Origin: Ignavibacteriota bacterium
GTDB taxonomy: Bacteria > Bacteroidota > Ignavibacteria > UBA10030
Assembly (NCBI GenBank): GCA_963701295.1
Contig: OY969585.1
Location: 3,104,001 to 3,168,000 of the forward strand
DNA: 64,000 nt
Direction of reading: 5' to 3'
Of this stretch, positions 49,272 to 63,583 are shown one piece after another. Under the pieces are notes generated by a model. That model had not been told where the DNA came from. It worked only from the letters and a program-made list of their open reading frames with translations, and made no database searches. Position numbers and translations under genes: made by a program. Numbering within the stretch: position 1 is the stretch's first letter; each line of letters begins with the position of its first letter.

Positions 49272-51953
49272 TCACTTTAATAGAATAAGTGCCTTCGTCT
49301 TAACAAAGTCACCTGTGTGTAATTGATAGAGATATACACCGCTGGAAAAGTTTTGGGCATCCCATTCCACCGAATAGGAACCAGGTTCTTTCCATTGATC
49401 AATGAGAACAGCAACTTCTCTACCAAGGAGATCATAAATCCTTAGTGAAACTTGACTCTTTTTTTGAATAGAAAATGAAATCTTGGTTGATGCATTGAAT
49501 GGATTGGGGTAATTCTGCTGCAAATTCAATTGACATGGAAGAGCATGACTCAGAGAAACAGATGTAATCCCTATCTCAGAACCATTGTAATGAATGACCG
49601 TATCGAATTTACTGGGACTAATTATACCAATACCCTTTCCAGTATCCACCCAAATGATATTGAAAATTTTATTTTGAGACATACCATTAAATGTTCCCTG
49701 TCTAGATCCGATGGTTAGCTGTTTTGAAGAATCATGATAAGTAATCGGGATAACTGAATATACTCCTCGTTCATAATTGTAGTTGTCATTTTCGTCTTCG
49801 TATAATGTGAATTGTCCATCCGCACCTCGATAAATTCGCAGTTCGAGCGTATCTGCAGGTTTTTCAGTGGCATATTGCATAAAAGGTCCTATCGGAATGA
49901 TGGAACCGGCTTTCACGAATAAAGGGATAGTTTCAATTGGTGCTTGAGCATCAATCGTTTGACCACCATTAAGAGATTCACCTGTCCAGAAATTATACCA
50001 TATGGTTGATTTCGGCAAATAAACTTTTCGCGTTTTAGATGTGTTGGTGCTAGTACTATATGATTGAGTGGTTACCGGATTTACAAGAAATGCCGGACCA
50101 AACATATATTGATCCTGAATATTAGTAATTGCTACGTCCGTTCGAAAATCAAAAGCAAGCGCTCGCATGATTGTATAGGATTCGTTGGTAACCTTCCAGG
50201 CGAGGGAATAGATATACGGTAGGAGTCGGTACCGCAGGTTATCGTAATTCAATAAAATTGATTTTGTATTTGCATCCCAGTTATTTGAAAACAACGCGCG
50301 TTCGCCTTTTCCATGAATTCTAAATATCGGACAGAAAGTGCCAAATTGGAACCAACGAGTAAACAATTCTCTGTTTGCAGCGGTTGTCCAATCGGGAGAT
50401 GTCCAGTTTAAATGATACCCTCCAATATCTGACGTCCAATATGGAATCCCGGAGACACAGGCGTTAATTGCCTGAGGCACTTGAATTGTATAAGAACTGA
50501 AGGTACACGTAATATCGGACGACCAAAGGGTTGTTGCATTTCGCTGCTGTCCGGCAAATGCCTGACGCACAAGGAAGAATGCTCGCTTTCCTGATATATC
50601 AGTTCTCCAGTTCTTATAAAGACCAATAGTATGTGTTAAGGAATAGGTATTGAAATAATCGATCCCTTTGCCAAGTGCAAAAATACTTTTTCTGCGTGCA
50701 TCTAGAAGTCCCCCATTGTCCGGTTCGCATTGGTCTACCCACCATGCATCCCATCCATAAGGAGTAATAAGACTATTATTCGCCTGTCTCCAATATATAT
50801 CTCGCGCATTGGAATTATGAGCATCATAGTATGTGTCATAATTATGTGTCATCACATCCTGCCAGGTAATATCAGTCAATCCTCCTGCGTTCTTCAACTC
50901 ATTAAAATTATTTGTTCCGCTTGCGAAAACCGGCCAAATCGAAATCATCGCATGAATGTTTGCTTTGTGTAACGAATCCACCATCGCTTTGGGATTAGGA
51001 TATCTGGTAGGGTTCATCACGTGCGAACCGATTACATCTGGTTCCCAGTAATACCAATCCTGAACGATGCAATCAACAGGGATGTGATTGTTTCGGTAAT
51101 TGTCTTTGACGGATAACACTTCAGCCTGGCTCTGATACCTATCCTGCGATTGAAACAATCCAAAACTCCACTTGGGAAACATTGGAGTCTGGCCAGTGGC
51201 TTCGCGGTAAAGTGAGATGATATGATCAAAGTCCGGACCGTAGAAAAAATAATAATCTACCATCGTACCGCTCTCCGATACATATTTGTATTTTGTATTG
51301 CCTGCCTCAGCACCATAAAAATTCGATGCCGAGTAGTTATCCCACATAAGTCCATACCCTTTGTTGGATAGTAAAACCGGAATTGCGCCAGTCATATATT
51401 GGATAGCCATATCCTGATTTCGGCCTTTGTAATTCATGGATCCGGCATCTGTCGGATGACAGCCCAATCCAAACAAAGCTTCATCCGCAGGAGATTGAAA
51501 GAGTGTTTCACTATTGTATGTATTGATGCCGGCAATGGTCGCCGCCGTCATATTCTTTCCTACAGAATCATCTTCGGCAAGTATAAGCGCACCATTAAGT
51601 TCGGTATACTGGATTGAATTGGTCAACTTTGTCAATTTGATTTTTATTTTACCGGTTGAAATAATTATCTCGGTTGAGCTTTCAGCAACTTGAAACTGAG
51701 GCTGAGTTATCCACGAGTTTGTTACTACCAAGGACGTTTTTGAAGAGAGTGCCGTCAACGATGTATATTTTACTTCAACGACATCCTCTTTACAAATTTT
51801 AATCTTCATGAAACCATTATCCAATGTGCATGTGATTCCATCGGCATCAGTTGTATACGATACTATGGAAGCCAGCGCAGTGTGACTGACTACGAAGAAA
51901 ATTAGGACAATTGTTATCGAGACAATGATACATTTATATTTAGACTTGTTCAT
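49272..51953 (-). CDS. GH31 alpha-xylosidase-like glycosidase with T9SS CTD
   Basis: WWVDQCEP, LWSSDI, PYWTSDIGG, FRIHG; CTD LQQNYPNPFN...SSGVYLYQL...KALILLK. Confidence 0.9.
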   Translation of the reverse strand: MNKSKYKCIIVSITIVLIFFVVSHTALASIVSYTTDADGITCTLDNGFMKIKICKEDVVEVKYTSLTALSSKTSLVVTNSWITQPQFQVAESSTEIIISTGKIKIKLTKLTNSIQYTELNGALILAEDDSVGKNMTAATIAGINTYNSETLFQSPADEALFGLGCHPTDAGSMNYKGRNQDMAIQYMTGAIPVLLSNKGYGLMWDNYSASNFYGAEAGNTKYKYVSESGTMVDYYFFYGPDFDHIISLYREATGQTPMFPKWSFGLFQSQDRYQSQAEVLSVKDNYRNNHIPVDCIVQDWYYWEPDVIGSHVMNPTRYPNPKAMVDSLHKANIHAMISIWPVFASGTNNFNELKNAGGLTDITWQDVMTHNYDTYYDAHNSNARDIYWRQANNSLITPYGWDAWWVDQCEPDNGGLLDARRKSIFALGKGIDYFNTYSLTHTIGLYKNWRTDISGKRAFFLVRQAFAGQQRNATTLWSSDITCTFSSYTIQVPQAINACVSGIPYWTSDIGGYHLNWTSPDWTTAANRELFTRWFQFGTFCPIFRIHGKGERALFSNNWDANTKSILLNYDNLRYRLLPYIYSLAWKVTNESYTIMRALAFDFRTDVAITNIQDQYMFGPAFLVNPVTTQSYSTSTNTSKTRKVYLPKSTIWYNFWTGESLNGGQTIDAQAPIETIPLFVKAGSIIPIGPFMQYATEKPADTLELRIYRGADGQFTLYEDENDNYNYERGVYSVIPITYHDSSKQLTIGSRQGTFNGMSQNKIFNIIWVDTGKGIGIISPSKFDTVIHYNGSEIGITSVSLSHALPCQLNLQQNYPNPFNASTKISFSIQKKSQVSLRIYDLLGREVAVLIDQWKEPGSYSVEWDAQNFSSGVYLYQLHTGDFVKTKALILLK

Positions 51954-53496: not shown

Positions 53497-54720
53497 TCAC
53501 TTGAGCAAAACCAATTTTTTCGTCTGAGTGAATGAGCCAGCCTGCAAACGATAAAAATATACTCCACTTGGAAGATTGGCAGCATTAAATCTGATAGAAC
53601 ATGTGCCTGCCTGCTGACGTTCGTTGACCAACGTCTTTAATTCCTTTCCAAGTACATCGTAAACTTTCAACGTGATAAAATTAATTATTGGTAATTGATA
53701 ACGTATCACAGTCGTTGGATTAAAAGGATTCGGAAAATTTTGCTCGAGCGTGTACACTTGTGGTAATAATGATTTGTTATTATTAACGCCTGTAATCATA
53801 TCCGACAGTGGCCGTCGCCACGCGCCGGTGGCAGTGCCTGCGACAATAGTGTTGTTGCTTATGGCAAGTGCATATAGGTTTTTATCAGTCAAGCCGGAAT
53901 TGACGGCAACCCAATTACTCCCGCTGTTAGTCGAAAGAAAAACGCCGCCGCCATTAGTGCCTGCAAAAATATTACCGTCGATAACGGCGAAACCATAAAC
54001 ATAGTTGTTCAAGACGGCAGTCCAATTACTCCCGCTGTTAGTCGAACGATAAGCGTTGCCGTTCTGTGTACCTGCAAAAATAGTACTGTCGCTGATGGCA
54101 AGAGCATAAACATCATTGTTGATCAAGGCGGTGGCAGTCCAGCTCGTGCCGCTGTTAGTCGAAAGATAAACCCCGCCATATGTACCTGCAAAAATACTAC
54201 TTCCGTTGATGGCAAAAGCACCAACATCTTTGCTGGTCAGGCCGGAATCGATGGAAGTCCAGCTCGTACCACTGGTAGTCGAAAGAAAAACGCCACCGCC
54301 CCAAGTGCCTGCAAAAATATTACTGCCACTGACGGCAAGAGCATAAACATCGGTGTTGGTCAAACCTTTATTAACGGCAGTCCAGCTAGTACCACTGTTA
54401 GTCGAAATATAAACGCCGTCAGAAGTGCCTGCAAAAATATTACTGTCGATGACGGCAAGAGCACTAATATCAGTGTTGGCCAAGGTGGAATCGACGAGAG
54501 TCCAGCTCGTACCACTGTTAGTCGAAAGATAAACGCCGCCGGCATAAGTGCCTGCAAAAATATCACCGTTGATGACGGCAAAACTTCTAACACCGCCAGC
54601 ACTGCCGCTTATGCCACTGCATTGAACCCATTGGGCGTAGAGTGAATTCGCACTATTGAATAGGTAAAATGCCATAAATAGGAATCCGCCTCTGTGGATA
54701 TATCGTAAAATATCTTTCAT
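53497..54720 (-). CDS. BNR-repeat beta-propeller protein with T9SS CTD (cassette)
   Basis: Six IFAGT.GGV.LSTNSG.SW repeats; CTD LEQNFPNPFNPTT...KKLVLLK; likely start MKDILRY at 54720 (RBS AAGGAG). Confidence 0.85.
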   Translation of the reverse strand: MKDILRYIHRGGFLFMAFYLFNSANSLYAQWVQCSGISGSAGGVRSFAVINGDIFAGTYAGGVYLSTNSGTSWTLVDSTLANTDISALAVIDSNIFAGTSDGVYISTNSGTSWTAVNKGLTNTDVYALAVSGSNIFAGTWGGGVFLSTTSGTSWTSIDSGLTSKDVGAFAINGSSIFAGTYGGVYLSTNSGTSWTATALINNDVYALAISDSTIFAGTQNGNAYRSTNSGSNWTAVLNNYVYGFAVIDGNIFAGTNGGGVFLSTNSGSNWVAVNSGLTDKNLYALAISNNTIVAGTATGAWRRPLSDMITGVNNNKSLLPQVYTLEQNFPNPFNPTTVIRYQLPIINFITLKVYDVLGKELKTLVNERQQAGTCSIRFNAANLPSGVYFYRLQAGSFTQTKKLVLLK

Positions 54721-54758
54721 GGGTCTCTCCTTTTGTGATATAGCCATGTGCAATTGCA

Positions 54759-54914
54759 ACCTAACGGACCGGCGCTAAGCTGCGGCGTTGAAAAGTTTCG
54801 TAATGCAACCAACGAAACAAGTTCATTCAATTAACTTTCAATTAAACACTAAACCTATGCGCGCCATGAATTTTGCAGTGAGCTCATTCCGTCAGCTTGA
54901 GCGCCTGGTTAGGG
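54759..54914 (-). repeat. attC site (156 bp)
   Basis: ACCTAACGGACCGGCGCTAAGCTGCGG...CCGTCAGCTTGAGCGCCTGGTTAGGG. Confidence 0.9.
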
Positions 54915-54962: not shown

Positions 54963-55295
54963 ATGAATTATGAAGACAAACCTCTTGTTTGGTTACACGG
55001 TGAAGTAAAAACTCCACCGTTCTCAAAAAATGCTCGCCTTGAAGCTGGCTTTTTATTGAGACAGCTACAAGCGGGAGAAAAGCTAAGTCTCCCCTTCTCA
55101 AGACCGATGCCAGCAATTGGAGCAAGATGCCATGAACTCCGAATTAACGATGAAAATAAAATATGGCGTATCATTTATCGAATTGATTCCGATGCAATAA
55201 TTATTTTAGAAATCTTTCAAAAACAGACACAACAAACACCAAAGAATATTATTGATATCTGTAAACGTCGCTTACGAATATACGACGAATTATAA
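54963..55295 (+). CDS. RelE/ParE-family (HigB/Gp49-like) toxin
   Basis: KTPPFS..AR.EAG.LLR.LQ.G, SRPMP.IG.RCHELRI...WRIIYRID...F.K.TQ.TP. Confidence 0.88.
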   Translation: MNYEDKPLVWLHGEVKTPPFSKNARLEAGFLLRQLQAGEKLSLPFSRPMPAIGARCHELRINDENKIWRIIYRIDSDAIIILEIFQKQTQQTPKNIIDICKRRLRIYDEL

Positions 55296-55306
55296 GGACA
55301 ACAAAA

Positions 55307-55618
55307 ATGGATAAAGCAAAACAAAAACGTCTTGAATCCGCAGGATGGAAAGTTGGAACAGCAAGCAATTTCCTTAACCTTTCTTCTGAGGAATCTGCAT
55401 ATATCGAACTCAAACTTCAATTAGCAAAGAACCTGCAGAAACGACGTATTGAGAAAAAACTTACACAAATGGCAGTAGCCCGAATGCTTAAATCAAGCCA
55501 ATCGCGTGTAGCAAAAATGGAATCAGGTGATCCGACCGTTTCTATCGACCTACTCATCCGTTCTCTGTTAGCTCTCGGTGCTAAACCAAGAGCGTTATTA
55601 CGAACTATTGCTCAATAA
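55307..55618 (+). CDS. XRE/HTH antitoxin (HigA-like)
   Basis: LTQ..VA..LKSSQSRVAKMESGD HTH; 11 nt after toxin. Confidence 0.88.
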   Translation: MDKAKQKRLESAGWKVGTASNFLNLSSEESAYIELKLQLAKNLQKRRIEKKLTQMAVARMLKSSQSRVAKMESGDPTVSIDLLIRSLLALGAKPRALLRTIAQ

Positions 55619-57914: not shown

Positions 57915-59372
57915 TCATTTGAGCAATATGAGTTTCTTCGTCTCGCTATATGAACCAGCTTGCAACCGATAAAAATAAATTCCACTCGACATATTTGCCG
58001 CAATCCATTGTTTCGTGTAACTTCCGGCTGACATTTCTTCTGAAACAATTGTCGCCACCTCTCTTCCTATCAAATCAAATACTCTTAGTGACACAAACGA
58101 TTTTGTTGGAATGCTAAATGAAATATTTGTAGAAGGATTAAAGGGATTCGGATAATTTTGCAGAAGGGAAAAAGTTTCCGGTGTAACAATGGCTACTCCC
58201 TCAACAGATGTTGGCATATTTGATTTAAGATATGGATAACCATTATTTATGCTTGAATCAATAGACCATACGGTTGTAAAATTCCAACCGTAACCGGTAA
58301 AAGTGGACTGTGATTTCATCTCAGTTGTGGTTTCACCAAATCCATCGACGCCGTTTGATTGGCCGGAGGATGTCACATCCCATAAACAGCTACCAGTGGT
58401 GGAAACGGTTTGATACCCAATCAAGCCGCCAACATGATTCGTACCCGTTGCAGAGCCACTGCTGTAGCAGTGTGTGGCGGTGGAAGAATATTTATTACCC
58501 AGAACATTATCATAATAGCCCCATTGCTCCCCAATCAAACCACCGACAAAAGAACCACCCGTTACAGAACCAATGCTGTAGCAATTCTCAATGGTGGCAG
58601 TACTTTGGTATCCAATCAAGCCACCGATATAAGAACCACCAGTTACAGAGCAACTGCTATAGCAGGTCTGGGCGTCGGCATCAATTTGATTCCCAATCAA
58701 GCCACCGATATAATAAACTCCACCAGTTACAGAACCAGTGCTGGAGCAGTTACTGACGGTGGATTCGAATTCCGACCCAATCAAGCCACCGATATAAGAA
58801 ACACCAGTTACAGAGCCACTGCTGGAGCAGTTACTGACGGTGGATTCGAATTCCGACCCAATCAAGCCACCGATATAAGAAACACCAGTTACAGAGCCAC
58901 TGCTGTGGCAGTTTATAAGAGTCCCACCCGACCCACCGTGATACCCAATTAAACCGCCGACAATATTGTTTCCAATTATCTTTACACTATCGAGCTTTAA
59001 ATTTTTGATTGTTGCCCACCATACCCTTCCAAAAAGACCAATGTAGTTCTTCGTGCTTCGGCTTATAAACAGACCGGTGATTTTATACCCCTGCCCATCG
59101 TATGAGCCATTGAAAAATTTCGTGCTATCTCCAATAGGAGAAAACCCTGCACCACCATCCCAAGAAGAACTTGTTGAGGCATCAATATCCGCTGTCTGAA
59201 TAAAATTCTTGTTCCATAAACTGCTGTCTTGTATAATCCAATAAAGGTTGTTTAATGTCGCAATTTGATAAGGATCGCCTGATGTACCGGATCCTGAAGG
59301 CTGGGTAGCCGTTTGGGAAAATAATGTGCTTGCAAAAAAAAGGAGAGCAAAAACTAATAATAAGTTTTTCAT
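57915..59372 (-). CDS. GLUG-repeat surface protein with T9SS CTD (cassette)
   Basis: GSGT..DPYQI, GSVTG..YIGGLIG repeats, CTD LLQNYPNPFNPST...KKLILLK. Confidence 0.87.
   Translation of the reverse strand: MKNLLLVFALLFFASTLFSQTATQPSGSGTSGDPYQIATLNNLYWIIQDSSLWNKNFIQTADIDASTSSSWDGGAGFSPIGDSTKFFNGSYDGQGYKITGLFISRSTKNYIGLFGRVWWATIKNLKLDSVKIIGNNIVGGLIGYHGGSGGTLINCHSSGSVTGVSYIGGLIGSEFESTVSNCSSSGSVTGVSYIGGLIGSEFESTVSNCSSTGSVTGGVYYIGGLIGNQIDADAQTCYSSCSVTGGSYIGGLIGYQSTATIENCYSIGSVTGGSFVGGLIGEQWGYYDNVLGNKYSSTATHCYSSGSATGTNHVGGLIGYQTVSTTGSCLWDVTSSGQSNGVDGFGETTTEMKSQSTFTGYGWNFTTVWSIDSSINNGYPYLKSNMPTSVEGVAIVTPETFSLLQNYPNPFNPSTNISFSIPTKSFVSLRVFDLIGREVATIVSEEMSAGSYTKQWIAANMSSGIYFYRLQAGSYSETKKLILLK
58741..58902. 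repeat. Perfect 81-bp tandem duplication within the GLUG gene
   Basis: CTGGAGCAGTTACTGACGG...CAGAGCCACTG present twice in tandem. Confidence 0.85.
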
Positions 59373-59410: not shown

Positions 59411-59600
59411 ACCTAACGGGTGGGCACTAAGCTGCCGCACTGAATACTTTCAAGTTGCTGAAAACGAAACAAGTTTATGCTGATAACGAAATTAATTCCA
59501 CAAATGTTATGAAGTACAAAGAACTTAATAATAAAAACTGAAAACCACCATTCGCCATGCGTAAAGTACCAACGCTCATCCGGTCAGCTTGAGTGCCTGG
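59411..59600 (-). repeat. attC site (long class) split by IS; its R'' lies at 60981-60987
   Basis: ACCTAACGGGTGGGCACTAAGCTG...GTCAGCTTGAGTGCCTGG | IS | TTAGGC. Confidence 0.88.
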
Positions 59601-59681
59601 ATATTACCAAAAAGGAATCTCCCGATTATGTACATTGATAATTCTCTAGGTCACCAACATCCACAATCTAAGGAGATTCCC

Positions 59682-60683
59682 ATGTATTACTCAGGTATCG
59701 ATTTGCATTCTGATAATTGTTTTATCACCACTGTTGATGACACTGGTGCTGTCATCAAGCGACAACGTGTCGAGAATAACAATGAACGTGTTCTTGATTA
59801 CTTCCACTCTCTGCCCGGTCCTCATCACGCAGTCGTTGAGTCTACCACAGGATGGTACTGGCTCAACGATCTTCTCAGCGATCACGGCATCGAGCTTGTC
59901 CTTGCTCACGCCAAATATCTCAAAGCCATCAGTTATGCTAAAGTTAAAACAGATAAAGTCGATTCGCAAACTCTTGCTCTTCTCTTACGACAGGGACTCA
60001 TTCCACGGGCTCACAAAATCAGCCGAGAACTACGCGGCCTGCGCGATACCATGCGTATTCGTCTACGGCTCGTTCAGCAACGAACTGCCAGTCTTCTGCG
60101 TCTCTACAGTATTCAGACCAAATTTAACGGCTCTGTTCCGGATCCGTATCGTTTTCAACTTGCTGTCTTGCAACATACCAGAGACACTTTTACTGCTCAG
60201 ATCCTCTCGCTGGAAAAATCTCTCCATCCTGTGCTGATTCCCAACGACGATATTCAACGGCTCTTGCACATTCCAGGTATCGGCAAGCTCACCGCATTCA
60301 CGGTGTATCTTGAAATCGACGGCATTGAACGATTCGACTCCGATAAAAAGTTTGTCTCTTACTGCCGACTCGTCCCTGCTGCCGATAACTCCAATCGCTC
60401 TGTGCACCATCGCTCCAGCAAAGACGGCAATAAGTATCTCAAAATCGCCTTCTCCGATGCCGCTGTTCATGCTATTCAGTACTATCCGGAATACAAACGC
60501 TTATTCCAGAAATTAGCTCGTCGCTCCAATGAGGCGACTGCGCGAACCGTCGTTGCCAAAGAACTTGCGAAGATTGTTTACTATGTCTTAAAAAACAAAA
60601 CAATATATAAAGGTCTCAAAGGTCAGCCGATCAGCCGGCATAAATCTCAGCAGTGGCCGCGCCTCTCAAGCCCGCTTTCCTAA
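59682..60683 (+). CDS. IS110-family DEDD transposase/recombinase
   Basis: YSGIDLH, VVEST, KTDKVDS, IPGIGKLTA, SYCRLVP...S, KDGNKYLK; ATG 59682 after AAGGAG. Confidence 0.93.
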   Translation: MYYSGIDLHSDNCFITTVDDTGAVIKRQRVENNNERVLDYFHSLPGPHHAVVESTTGWYWLNDLLSDHGIELVLAHAKYLKAISYAKVKTDKVDSQTLALLLRQGLIPRAHKISRELRGLRDTMRIRLRLVQQRTASLLRLYSIQTKFNGSVPDPYRFQLAVLQHTRDTFTAQILSLEKSLHPVLIPNDDIQRLLHIPGIGKLTAFTVYLEIDGIERFDSDKKFVSYCRLVPAADNSNRSVHHRSSKDGNKYLKIAFSDAAVHAIQYYPEYKRLFQKLARRSNEATARTVVAKELAKIVYYVLKNKTIYKGLKGQPISRHKSQQWPRLSSPLS

Positions 60684-60900
60684 CTGATCCCGACTGCGTC
60701 GGGATCGTTCGCTGGATTGGGAAGAGAGTGCGCTGTGCCGTGGTAATATCTGGAACATCTCGCTCGACGAGATACGCTTTCACCATCGTTTCTTCAATGA
60801 GTGAATGTAAATCCGTAAACTGGTTTGGACGGCATTGCTCTGGTAATCGCCTGTCTATTCGATAGAGAACGCGGCATCGGCACGGATTCGGTCGTCCTTA
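60675..60900 (+). ncRNA. Candidate seek/bridge RNA of the IS1111-type element
   Basis: Structured region (GATCCCGAC/GTCGGGATC; GTGCCG/CGGCAC) with segments matching the IS junction (TGGTAATATC, TAAACTGG) and target (CCTAAC); boundaries uncertain. Confidence 0.55.
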
Positions 60901-60981
60901 ATGTTAAAGAACTCTGCATTCCGATTGCGCGGAACGCATCGGGAGTATATTATTTACTTGACTCTTTCCTTTTTAAACTGG

Positions 60982-61428: not shown

Positions 61429-61623
61429 GCCTAACGGACCGGCGCTAAGCTGCGGCATGACAAAACCTCAACCTGCACCCAACGAAACAAGTTTAACCAC
61501 AAAACCAAATTAATAAAAACTAAACCAGCGAGAAACTTAAAACAAACTTAACAAACGTAAACCCACCACGCGCAATGTAAATTGCACTACGCTCACTCCG
61601 TCAGCTTGAGCGCCTGGTTAGGT
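61429..61623 (-). repeat. attC site (195 bp)
   Basis: GCCTAACGGACCGGCGCTAAGCTGCGG...CCGTCAGCTTGAGCGCCTGGTTAGGT. Confidence 0.9.
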
Positions 61624-62188: not shown

Positions 62189-62348
62189 ACATAACGGACG
62201 GGCACTAAGCTGCGGCGTTGATAACTTTCGTCATGCAACCAACGAAACAAGTCCCACAACGAAAGTTTTATCATTTGCACCAGACCCTATGCTTAGCCAT
62301 GTTAATTGCACCCAGCTGGCAACCGTCAGCTTGAGTGCCTGGTTAGGC
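62189..62348 (-). repeat. attC site (160 bp)
   Basis: ACATAACGGACGGGCACTAAGCTGCGG...CCGTCAGCTTGAGTGCCTGGTTAGGC. Confidence 0.9.
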
Positions 62349-62648
62349 TATTGTTACTTTGTTGTACAAACTTTCTTCATAGACAAAATATTCCGACTCT
62401 TTCATAACTCGAATTTTTCTGAGCACAGGCAGCGCATCACCGAGATGCTTTTTGGAACTTAACTTGCACTGCTTTTTTATTCTCGTTCAAATCAAAACTT
62501 GTTGACAACGTAACCGTATAGAAAGCAACCAACATTTTAGTCTGCACTTCGCCCTTAGAAACTTTTGCCAGTAGAAAGAAATATAAAACCCAAATAGGTA
62601 ACCACAATACTTTAAAACACAACTCACACAAAGCGCGCTGCCTGTGCA
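62349..62648 (-). other. ORF-less cassette A with 13-bp inverted repeat
   Basis: GCACAGGCAGCGC (62423-62435) / GCGCTGCCTGTGC (62635-62647); no ORF with a start inside the cassette. Confidence 0.75.
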
Positions 62649-62805
62649 GCCTAACGATTGGCAACTAAGCTGCGGCGTTGATAATTACGAGTCATGCAAT
62701 CAACGAAACGAGCCACACGTCTTTCGCGCCATAAAAATAACGTGTGTTTAGCGCCATGAATTTACCACCAACGCTCCAACCGTCAGCTTGAGTTGCTGGT
62801 TATGT
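62649..62805 (-). repeat. attC site (157 bp)
   Basis: GCCTAACGATTGGCAACTAAGCTGCGG...CCGTCAGCTTGAGTTGCTGGTTATGT. Confidence 0.88.
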
Positions 62806-63079
62806 TATAGTTTATTTAATGTACAAACTTTCCGAAAAACAATATTCGCTAACATCATCATAACTTGAATGTTTCTGAGCACAGGCAGCGCATCGCCGAG
62901 ATTCTTTTCGGTGCTTAACATGCACTGCTTTTTTCTCGTACAAAACAAAACTTGTTGACAGCATAACTTATAGAAAGCAACCAATCGCGAATTTTGTACA
63001 ATGTGAATGAAACTTAAAGCCAGTAGAACGCGATTACCAAACCCCGCAAGTAACACATACAGAGCGCGCTGCCTGTGCA
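62806..63079 (-). other. ORF-less cassette B, homolog of cassette A
   Basis: Same 13-bp IR (62879-62891 / 63066-63078) and shared blocks TGCACTGCTTTTTT, AAAACTTGTTGACA, TATAGAAAGCAACCAA, GCCAGTAGAA. Confidence 0.75.
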
Positions 63080-63232
63080 ACATAACGGACGGCAACTAAG
63101 CTGCAGCGCTGAAATGCCGTAAGTTGCTGAATACAAAATAAGTTTATTATAAGATCTTTTAAACAATAATTTCTAAGCGCCATGCTTAACGTACCAACGC
63201 TCATTCTGTCAGCTTGAGTTGCTTGGTTAGGC
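63080..63232 (-). repeat. attC site (153 bp)
   Basis: ACATAACGGACGGCAACTAAGCTGCAG...CTGTCAGCTTGAGTTGCTTGGTTAGGC. Confidence 0.88.
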
Positions 63233-63431
63233 CAACAGATTTTAATTTTATCACCATTGGTCGAAAGACAACGACCGATACTTTCAAAATGTACTCAACG
63301 AAATAGATACTTGCGCGTGCGGTGCAAACGAATATTCAATTTAAACGGCACGACGTAGATAGCATTCAAACACTCGTAACAACAAAACATTTTTAAAAAC
63401 ATAATTACTAAACTTTCGCACCGCACGCGCG
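63233..63431 (-). other. ORF-less cassette C with a different 13-bp inverted repeat
   Basis: GCGCGTGCGGTGC (63313-63325) / GCACCGCACGCGC (63418-63430). Confidence 0.72.
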
Positions 63432-63583
63432 GCCTAACGGACGGCAACTAAGCTGCAGCGCTGATATGCCGCAAGTTGCTATCAACAAACCAAGTTTATT
63501 ACAAAATCTTTTAAACAATAATCTCTAAGTGTCATGCTTAACGTACCAATGCTCATTCTGTCAGCTTGAGTTGCTGGTTAGAA
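63432..63583 (-). repeat. attC site (152 bp)
   Basis: GCCTAACGGACGGCAACTAAGCTGCAG...CTGTCAGCTTGAGTTGCTGGTTAGAA. Confidence 0.9.

Follow-up and report, generated by a model that had tools for sequence, protein, structure and literature searches.

Gene-less integron cassettes of an Ignavibacteriota bacterium carry a conserved stem whose inner arm is offset by a spacer of fixed length

Introduction

Cassettes without genes make up 6–49% of some chromosomal integron arrays, and the main text of the same study weighed 'selfish elements' against 'beneficial function' as explanations (Boucher et al., 2006; PMC1382264). Where explanations for the persistence of gene-less cassettes have been tested, promoter activity has been the main one. 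An integron array of an Ignavibacteriota bacterium raises the question of whether other answers exist. In the 64,000-nt stretch that we analysed (contig OY969585.1, positions 3,104,001 to 3,168,000; hereafter the window), three consecutive cassettes, A, B and C, carry no gene, and each contains a 13-bp inverted repeat in a peculiar position. A first-pass annotation made from the sequence had proposed that they belong to a family of mobile structured RNAs, retron-like templates for a reverse transcriptase, single-stranded DNA elements or modulators of attC folding. We compared the three cassettes with their relatives and weighed these and other readings against each other.

Results and Discussion

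Host genome and integron arrays

The genome containing the window is a single contig, 99% complete, with one intact integron integrase gene (TIGR02249, 453 bits, no stops). An attI-like repeat lies beside intI and also at other array heads, but only one intI is present. By pattern scan, the genome has 118 attC sites, roughly 150–200 bp long and distributed over several arrays, and 99 cassettes could be delimited. The array in the window runs on the minus strand. The attC lengths cluster near 155 and 195 bp (for example, 62189–62348 and 61429–61623 in the window), longer than the quoted range of 57–141 bp (PMC5371416). A C-rich bottom strand characterises their terminal loops, a skew opposite to the purine-rich one reported for attC loops of mobile integrons (PMC5027507). 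Among 201 sampled genomes of the class, this type of attC is abundant only in the genus of this bacterium, with smaller arrays in two other genera.

Several other features of the arrays were recorded. An attI copy without an integrase gene heads the array just past the window end (G000:C1, about 3172050–3172330) and adjoins the 5' half of a tRNA-like sequence. An IS110-family element at 59589–60975 of the window, comprising a 364-aa ORF (PF01548 and PF02371) and a non-coding right end of about 290 bp, sits in the R' box of an attC, and the same junction recurs at about nine attC sites of the genome; we take it to resemble an attC-targeting IS1111-type element. Large secreted proteins are encoded on cassettes at 57915–59372, 53497–54759 and 49272–51953, one of them with 27-aa internal repeats; they presumably share a C-terminal sorting-like domain. 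Two small plus-strand genes at 54963–55618, opposed to the array direction, look to us like a RelE/HigB-type toxin-antitoxin pair.

Three gene-less cassettes with an offset stem

The three cassettes, each taken from the leading G of its GTTRRRY to the final C of its RYYYAAC, and their parts, in window coordinates, are:
63432–63583, minus strand: attC of the cassette preceding C; its GTTRRRY (63432–63438) is the start of C
63226–63438, minus strand: gene-less cassette C, 213 bp; three genome copies, 91–94% identical
63418–63430, minus strand: 5' arm of the 13-bp stem of C, nucleotides 9–21
63313–63325, minus strand: partner arm of C
63233–63312, minus strand: fixed-length spacer of C, 80 nt
63274–63303, minus strand: 30-nt module in the C spacer, also found in the terminal loops (VTS) of attC sites of the genome; local score 31–45 vs 23 for shuffles
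63080–63232, minus strand: attC of C
62799–63086, minus strand: gene-less cassette B, 288 bp; four other genome copies of 290 bp, 86–87% identical
63066–63078, minus strand: 5' arm of B
62879–62891, minus strand: partner arm of B
62806–62878, minus strand: fixed-length spacer of B, 73 nt
62649–62805, minus strand: attC of B
62342–62655, minus strand: gene-less cassette A, 314 bp; the genome has one more copy, identical to it
62635–62647, minus strand: 5' arm of A
62423–62435, minus strand: partner arm of A
62349–62422, minus strand: fixed-length spacer of A, 74 nt
62189–62348, minus strand: attC of A

The first-pass annotation had described three ORF-less cassettes with attC sites, each with one arm of a 13-bp repeat starting one nucleotide after the GTTRRRY and its partner 90–200 nt further in, and this description held. 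Each cassette has a perfect 13-bp arm at nucleotide 9, followed by a loop of 199 (A), 174 (B) or 92 nt (C), the partner arm, and 74, 73 or 80 nt up to the cassette's own RYYYAAC. A 13-bp partner appeared in 0 of 2000 dinucleotide shuffles of each cassette, and a 10-bp partner in 4, 0 and 1 shuffles for A, B and C. Their own attC sites have the order R''-L''-loop-L'-R', and folding of these sites in the excised circle is predicted for all three, with L-box pairing of 0.96–0.97. The RNA folding z-scores of the whole cassettes are modest (−1.3, −1.8 and −2.6). A and B are diverged homologs, as had been proposed, with 71% global identity, and C shares 45–47% with either. The stem of C had been regarded as a different sequence with the same geometry. 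The geometry is indeed the same, but the stem is not independent, as 8 of its 13 positions match A/B and relatives carry intermediate stems.

The GC-rich cassette start, to which the annotation had drawn attention, is present but normal in this genome. The longer, mostly protein-coding cassettes carry a flush terminal inverted repeat with a median of 13 bp; thus, a GC-rich stretch after the GTTRRRY is ordinary here. The distinctive feature of A, B and C is the partner arm set inward by a fixed spacer. Other short gene-less cassettes, of 118–270 bp, end in a flush terminal repeat and lack the displaced stem (L130, L148, L159, L137, L006:1970–2220, L279 and L272), most of them with a T/G-rich top strand as in the offset-stem family.

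A lineage-restricted family with near-identical copies in different arrays

The genome holds 12 gene-less copies with the offset stem. All 11 delimited cassettes shorter than 330 bp have this geometry (nine perfect, two with one mismatch), and the twelfth gene-less element stands first behind an attI copy. Family members measure 180–415 bp. Of the 15 other genomes in the genus, 5 gave homologs by pattern and BLAST searches, and none was found in 70 other genomes of the taxonomic family (pattern) or 45 genomes outside the genus (BLAST). In a GTDB scan with one genome per species, 11 of 61 loci were truly flanked by attC, all from organisms labelled Ignavibacteriota or Bacteroidota bacterium; the other 50 were discarded as GC-rich chance matches outside an attC context. 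A metagenome scan gave at least 131 loci. Viral contigs gave one and three pattern matches, none flanked by attC, and none for the pattern of the gene-bearing branch described below. The A/B and C arms have no match in the genome outside cassettes.

Among the complete matches listed, 113 are distinct and 111 share one frame, with the arm at nucleotide 9 and the partner 79–87 nt before the cassette end. The spacer keeps a length of 72–80 nt in these 111 although their loops range from 64 to 297 nt. The two exceptions are L054, which has no spacer, and L109, a protein cassette matched by chance. A further 52 starts have no end within the locus; of the metagenomic ones, 48 are cut by the locus end and two are non-members. 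The 5' arm was the basis of these searches, so that frames in which the arm differs are under-sampled.

Elements of the family have close paralogs far more often than other cassettes of the genome: 9 of 12 have a paralog of at least 90% identity, compared with 2 of 81 (Fisher p = 1e-8). An element directly follows another element in 4 of 11 cases, against 7 of 85 after other cassettes, and near-identical copies stand in different arrays and in different order. From their sequences, the elements appear to move as units, bounded by att sites in every case. The family is dispensable, as genome G010 has 41 attC matches and no element match.

Conservation and strand preference of the stem

The cassette ends pair over 8 bp, and this pairing together with the 13-bp stem gives a conserved helix of 21 bp. 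Its cells are paired in 98.3% of cases among 45 A/B sequences and in 96.0% among 36 C/D/F sequences; none of 500 shuffles reached these fractions, and slid controls gave 18–44%. The annotation had named compensatory changes in the stem as a point to check, and we found five doubly changed pairs in each of the two alignments (A/B, n = 45; C/D/F, n = 36), a count that relatedness and template switching can inflate. In a near-perfect repeat, compensatory changes can come from template switching without selection on each pair. One-sided changes of the G-U type are absent from the 945 cells of the A/B alignment. RNAalifold found no other helix common to the subfamilies.

Mismatches in the stem are strongly biased to one strand. 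At stem positions 10–20 we counted 24 mismatch events at family level, with the G kept on the bottom strand in 21, on the top strand in one and on neither in two; the left-arm search pattern biases this count, and right-arm changes, which the pattern does not constrain, split 8 to 1 for the bottom strand. Imperfect stems are more stable as the bottom strand in 29 of 33 cases with DNA parameters and in 20 of 33 with RNA parameters. Integron integrases recombine the bottom strand. For attC sites, the same G:T asymmetry has been reported, again with the bottom strand carrying the G (PMC5027507). The asymmetry fits an antisense RNA equally well.

Spacer length is conserved while spacer sequence diverges

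The spacers fall into four types (A/B, F, C and D), mostly unalignable with each other, with z values from −0.9 to 3.1 between types. The typing left out 9 of 115 entries (wrong ends, the spacer-less variant and one stem with four mismatches), and window cassette B was added by hand. Loop and spacer modules swap between types. Within the A/B type, loop and spacer have a mean identity of about 75% and large indels are resisted within subfamilies, which is more than a pure tether requires.

In composition, loop and spacer match the local attC terminal loops. The top-strand GC skew of loop plus spacer is +0.15 to +0.42 and that of the attC terminal loop +0.25. We rejected a replication artefact as the source of this skew, as fourfold sites on the leading strand show just +0.05. 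We likewise rejected a derivation of whole cassette bodies from attC loops, as the C spacer alone scores clearly above shuffles.

One D-type cassette of 125 bp (L054:1397–1521; G005:C59) has lost exactly the spacer and forms a near-continuous hairpin between two intact attC sites. It is either a natural mutant or an assembly artefact. The exact loss of the spacer is what would be expected if the helix forms in vivo.

A proposed single-stranded extension of the recombination site

What is observed, then, is a set of non-coding, multi-copy cassettes bounded by att sites, in which the 21-bp helix and the spacer length are conserved and the loop is free. Our best reading, to which we give about an even chance of being right, is that the offset stem is a single-stranded-DNA extension of the recombination site, carried by self-amplifying gene-less cassettes. 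Among the first-pass proposals, the option of a single-stranded DNA element or a modulator of attC folding finds support.

On this model, the 13-bp stem would fold in the bottom single strand beside the R box of the integrase and favour recombination, and the family would spread by being excised and re-inserted more frequently than gene-bearing cassettes. The arm lies on the strand that is cut at R'; in its folded state it would therefore lengthen the duplex flanking the R box with any upstream cassette, and again in the excised circle. Ordinary cassettes would obtain such an extension from their flush terminal repeat, in the circle only. The 72–80-nt spacer would stop a long stem from zipping the two flanking attC sites together and may at the same time tether them for attC x attC excision. 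One-step excision from single-stranded DNA has been documented (PMC12614218). Speculatively, the spacer length may match one SSB tetramer; in its 65-nt mode, E. coli SSB is reported to wrap a strand of 70 nt, the ends of which then give high FRET (PMC5737091).

The folding calculations agree with this model in part. The stem forms with a predicted probability of 0.92–1.0. In the circle, the median R-box pairing is 0.97 compared with 0.90 when the arm is scrambled, a small gain, and pairing between the two inner R boxes has a median of 0.79 compared with 0.22. Removing the spacer in silico raised inner R-box pairing to 0.91–0.99 and brought canonical attC pairing to 0 in 11 of 11 contexts. For the three contexts of the window, inner R pairing is 0.99, 0.94 and 0.99 against 0.83, 0.94 and 0.91 with scrambled arms, and the fold barely changes. 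The equilibrium model disfavours canonical attC folding in most contexts even for the wild type; for long single strands, equilibrium calculations offer weak guidance, and the contexts computed are those of gene-less elements. Against a recombination advantage, cassette length is reported to have little effect on excision below 1.5 kb (PMC5371416). The high paralogy at 90% identity or more also fits positive selection for a benefit to the host.

Reading frames, promoters and RNA

Indels in multiples of three number 2 of 36 in A/B, 0 of 4 in C, 0 of 8 in D and 1 of 11 in F. The longest ORFs vary in start and length, and B alone contains a chance open frame of 92 aa. A conserved reading frame, which the annotation had suggested looking for, is not found among the homologs, and peptide coding is rejected because the indels are almost never triplet. 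Together with the compensatory changes in the stem, the non-triplet indels uphold the proposal of a family of mobile non-coding units selected on the stem.

A promoter model learned from 248 upstream regions of the host, of the TTG-17-TAnnTT type and representing the housekeeping type only, gave cassettes medians of 3.9–7.0 bits against 9.3 for real upstream regions. Top-strand scores lie below those of shuffles in all four types. Bottom-strand scores exceed shuffles in C (4.1 vs 2.0) and D (7.0 vs 4.6), with no shared position. A generic promoter scan found 4 sites where 2.9±2.0 are expected by chance. By the host-trained model and the generic scan, the cassettes have no conserved housekeeping −35/−10 promoter. 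Bacteroidia-type promoter motifs were set aside, as they are not enriched upstream of the host genes.

In Rfam, the best matches of the window region and seven loci remain far under the gathering score. An inner CGAGA/TCTCG helix of A/B is convincing by eye and is seen in the 243-bp subtype, but it was rejected because it is absent from the consensus fold of 40 sequences. Relatives occur in contigs of four metatranscriptome runs (of 10, with word shares of 0.05–0.07), which give no strand, ends or level and may include DNA carry-over; these contigs offer no internal control, because the flanking cassettes had zero cover. No match to the reverse transcriptase family PF00078 was found in the genome, while the control matched 3 of 14 genomes. 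In a one-contig genome that is 99% complete, this result argues against the retron-like template that had been proposed, and the co-occurring reverse transcriptase that the annotation had suggested looking for is likewise missing from the matches.

These data bear directly on the alternative of one small non-coding RNA per cassette, which would probably run antisense to the array, be closed by the 13-bp stem and have its promoter region in the spacer. The covarying stem agrees with such an RNA, the preference for the bottom strand suits an antisense transcript, a spacer of fixed length resembles a promoter region, the bottom-strand scores of C and D point in the same direction, and the metatranscriptome contigs contain relatives. 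But the end helix is the only conserved fold, no promoter recurs at a common position, no Rfam family comes near its gathering score, loop and spacer modules are exchanged between types, and contigs without strand or ends may contain DNA. Moreover, the same frame can enclose up to about 3.9 kb with genes on either strand, as described below. We regard a small RNA as unlikely, and the structured RNA of the first-pass annotation loses its support on the same grounds.

A gene-bearing branch of the family

A screen of 332 cassettes found one convincing gene-bearing frame in this genome, and the search of the genus gave more. Four other cassettes of the screen with 9–10 of 12 matches were rejected, as the matches lie inside ORFs. 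The resulting branch, G, comprises six complete cassettes of 860–4148 bp, with the arm at nucleotide 9, the partner 83–84 nt from the end and a cargo of 0.6–3.9 kb. In the five compared, the ends are 74–90% identical over the first 70 nt and 80–92% over the last 160 nt. The cargos have no mutual tblastx match at 1e-4, except for an 84-bp non-coding extension in two of them. They include methyltransferase and MvaI/BcnI-family genes (restriction-modification), genes on the opposite strand and a truncated attC. Because the frame surrounds 0.6–3.9 kb of different genes, it speaks against a small RNA. With enclosed lengths that run from 64 nt to 3.9 kb, the stem is a structure of the cassette ends and not what closes one small RNA. 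In one genome, the attC upstream of a G-branch cassette carries a palindromic insertion of about 50 bp in its L' region (L302:1–118; G005:C113).

The branch suggests a second alternative, in which the empty frames are acceptors that amplify as parasites of the integrase, and foreign DNA entering the single-stranded loop turns a frame into a new gene cassette, with G as the visible product. Shared ends around diverse cargo, with the tblastx result given above, speak for this scenario. Three of the six G cassettes stand first behind attI, and G spacers resemble C spacers (z = 3.1), which also speak for it. A short direct repeat at the edges of the cargo is suggestive of a fixed recombination site. 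On the other side, the A/B, C, D and F types hold no cargo among the 332 cassettes, nor do the metagenome starts that lack an end. Among 86 genomes, neither an empty G frame nor an unoccupied recombination site within G was found, and the edge repeat is absent in other genera. Two of the cargos have no close unframed donor (best identity 66%), and some cargo ORFs look distantly related by eye.

The G cassettes also have an inner inverted repeat that is absent in the empty types. It is a 15-bp motif about 30 nt inside cassette-like ends, present in 27 of 86 genomes of the taxonomic family; read outward, it has the ends TGT...ACA. In other genera (L303–L330), it often forms inverted pairs 0.6–2.7 kb apart, with different flanking attC-like sites. 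Since it ends cassettes elsewhere too, G may be a foreign type of cassette that was nested once in a C-like frame. Taken together, we consider repeated capture into the frame to be distinctly unlikely.

Promoter cassettes, protein-binding sites and descent

A third alternative is that the cassettes are kept because they drive transcription of their neighbours, as promoter cassettes do in Vibrionaceae and Treponema. There is published precedent (PMC11014356; PMC8876359), the bodies are AT-rich, and F-type spacers contain a TATAAT-like hexamer near their end. The promoter scores reported above speak against it, namely the top-strand scores under the shuffles in four of four types, from a host-trained model of the housekeeping type, and the generic scan close to chance; it would also leave the stem and its anchoring unexplained. 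We think that this explanation has little chance of being correct.

Next, the arms could be sites in double-stranded DNA for a host or phage protein, used for looping or as decoys, in which case their complementarity would reflect no more than symmetric sites that template switching keeps alike. Many positions of the arms do not vary between types with unalignable spacers, and primary sequence kept at many stem positions also fits a protein-binding site. Integron cassettes are often reported to serve in phage defence. Recurrent independent double changes and strand-biased mismatches are unexpected for such sites, though; in the genome, matches to the A/B and C arms are confined to cassettes, and none of the matches in viral contigs is flanked by attC. 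Double-stranded sites therefore seem to us quite improbable. A frozen accident, the geometry of one ancestral cassette passively copied by integrase, is very improbable, as the spacer length was kept while sequences diverged beyond alignment and loops were resized many times, and the stem was kept with compensations, even if the moderate rate variation among sites of the A/B type (gamma alpha 1.4 in loops, 1.2 in spacers) and the dispensability of the element in G010 would suit it.

Relation to known systems

The closest published counterparts are the paralogous non-coding cassettes of Vibrio (Boucher et al., 2006; PMC1382264), which, as described in that main text, likewise have no ORF, a normal attC and many paralogs per array, with homologs that stay within one lineage and are conserved from end to end. 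The term 'secondary structure' occurs 0 times in that main text. The offset-stem family differs from the Vibrio set by its covarying stem at nucleotide 9, fixed spacer, variable loops and gene-bearing sister branch. Promoter cassettes of Vibrionaceae (Blanco et al., 2024; PMC11014356) and Treponema (PMC6557892) are reported as gene-less, AT-rich members of sedentary arrays as well. Those of Vibrionaceae measure 491–666 bp and some are decayed genes, and 'hairpin' and 'inverted repeat' occur 0 times in the main text of that article. The offset-stem cassettes measure 180–415 bp, show no trace of an earlier gene and lack a conserved promoter of the housekeeping type.

The attC sites themselves, according to Nivina et al. 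(2016; PMC5027507) and Loot et al. (2017; PMC5371416), resemble the offset stem in combining a stem with an unstructured loop and in their bottom-strand G mismatches. An attC has its L box with extrahelical bases on the crossover side of the R box. The offset stem is found beyond the R box, towards the cassette, with no L box and no conserved extrahelical base or bulge. On the bottom strand its loop is rich in C, in contrast to the purine-rich attC loops reported for mobile integrons (PMC5027507).

Two further systems share the outline of the cassettes. The msr-msd RNA of retrons is bounded by the a1/a2 inverted repeats, and retrons resemble the cassettes in having a terminal inverted repeat of about 13 bp around 100–200 nt. 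The cassettes differ in having no reverse transcriptase in the genome, no conserved inner stems and no fixed gene neighbour. MITEs carry short inverted repeats around a non-coding, multi-copy interior, as the cassettes do, and occur as dispersed insertions with target-site duplication. The repeats of the offset stem, in contrast, keep a constant position in the cassette, occur nowhere else in the genome and have no visible target-site duplication.

A, B and C thus belong to the known class of gene-less, paralogous, lineage-restricted cassettes. The claim of an undescribed system stands in part, since families of gene-less cassettes are published and the offset-stem frame is the component for which we found no account. 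Our search of full-text literature, most of it outside subscription papers and supplements, gave no description of an anchored offset stem in cassettes; cassettes of a similar kind could be contained in the supplement of PMC11014356. We regard the offset-stem frame as a real variant of gene-less integron cassettes, with strong statistical backing and apparently not described before, which most likely acts as single-stranded DNA.

Implications

The offset-stem family offers a sharply defined alternative to promoter activity as a reason for the persistence of gene-less cassettes. It presents a structural element outside attC with two measurable rules, a stem at nucleotide 9 and a spacer of 72–80 nt. 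If the G branch arose by repeated capture into the frame, it would bear on the origin of cassettes and provide a concrete route for how integron cassettes arise. If the stem tunes recombination, cassette mobility would depend on more than the attC hairpin, and cassettes could be selected for their own spread.
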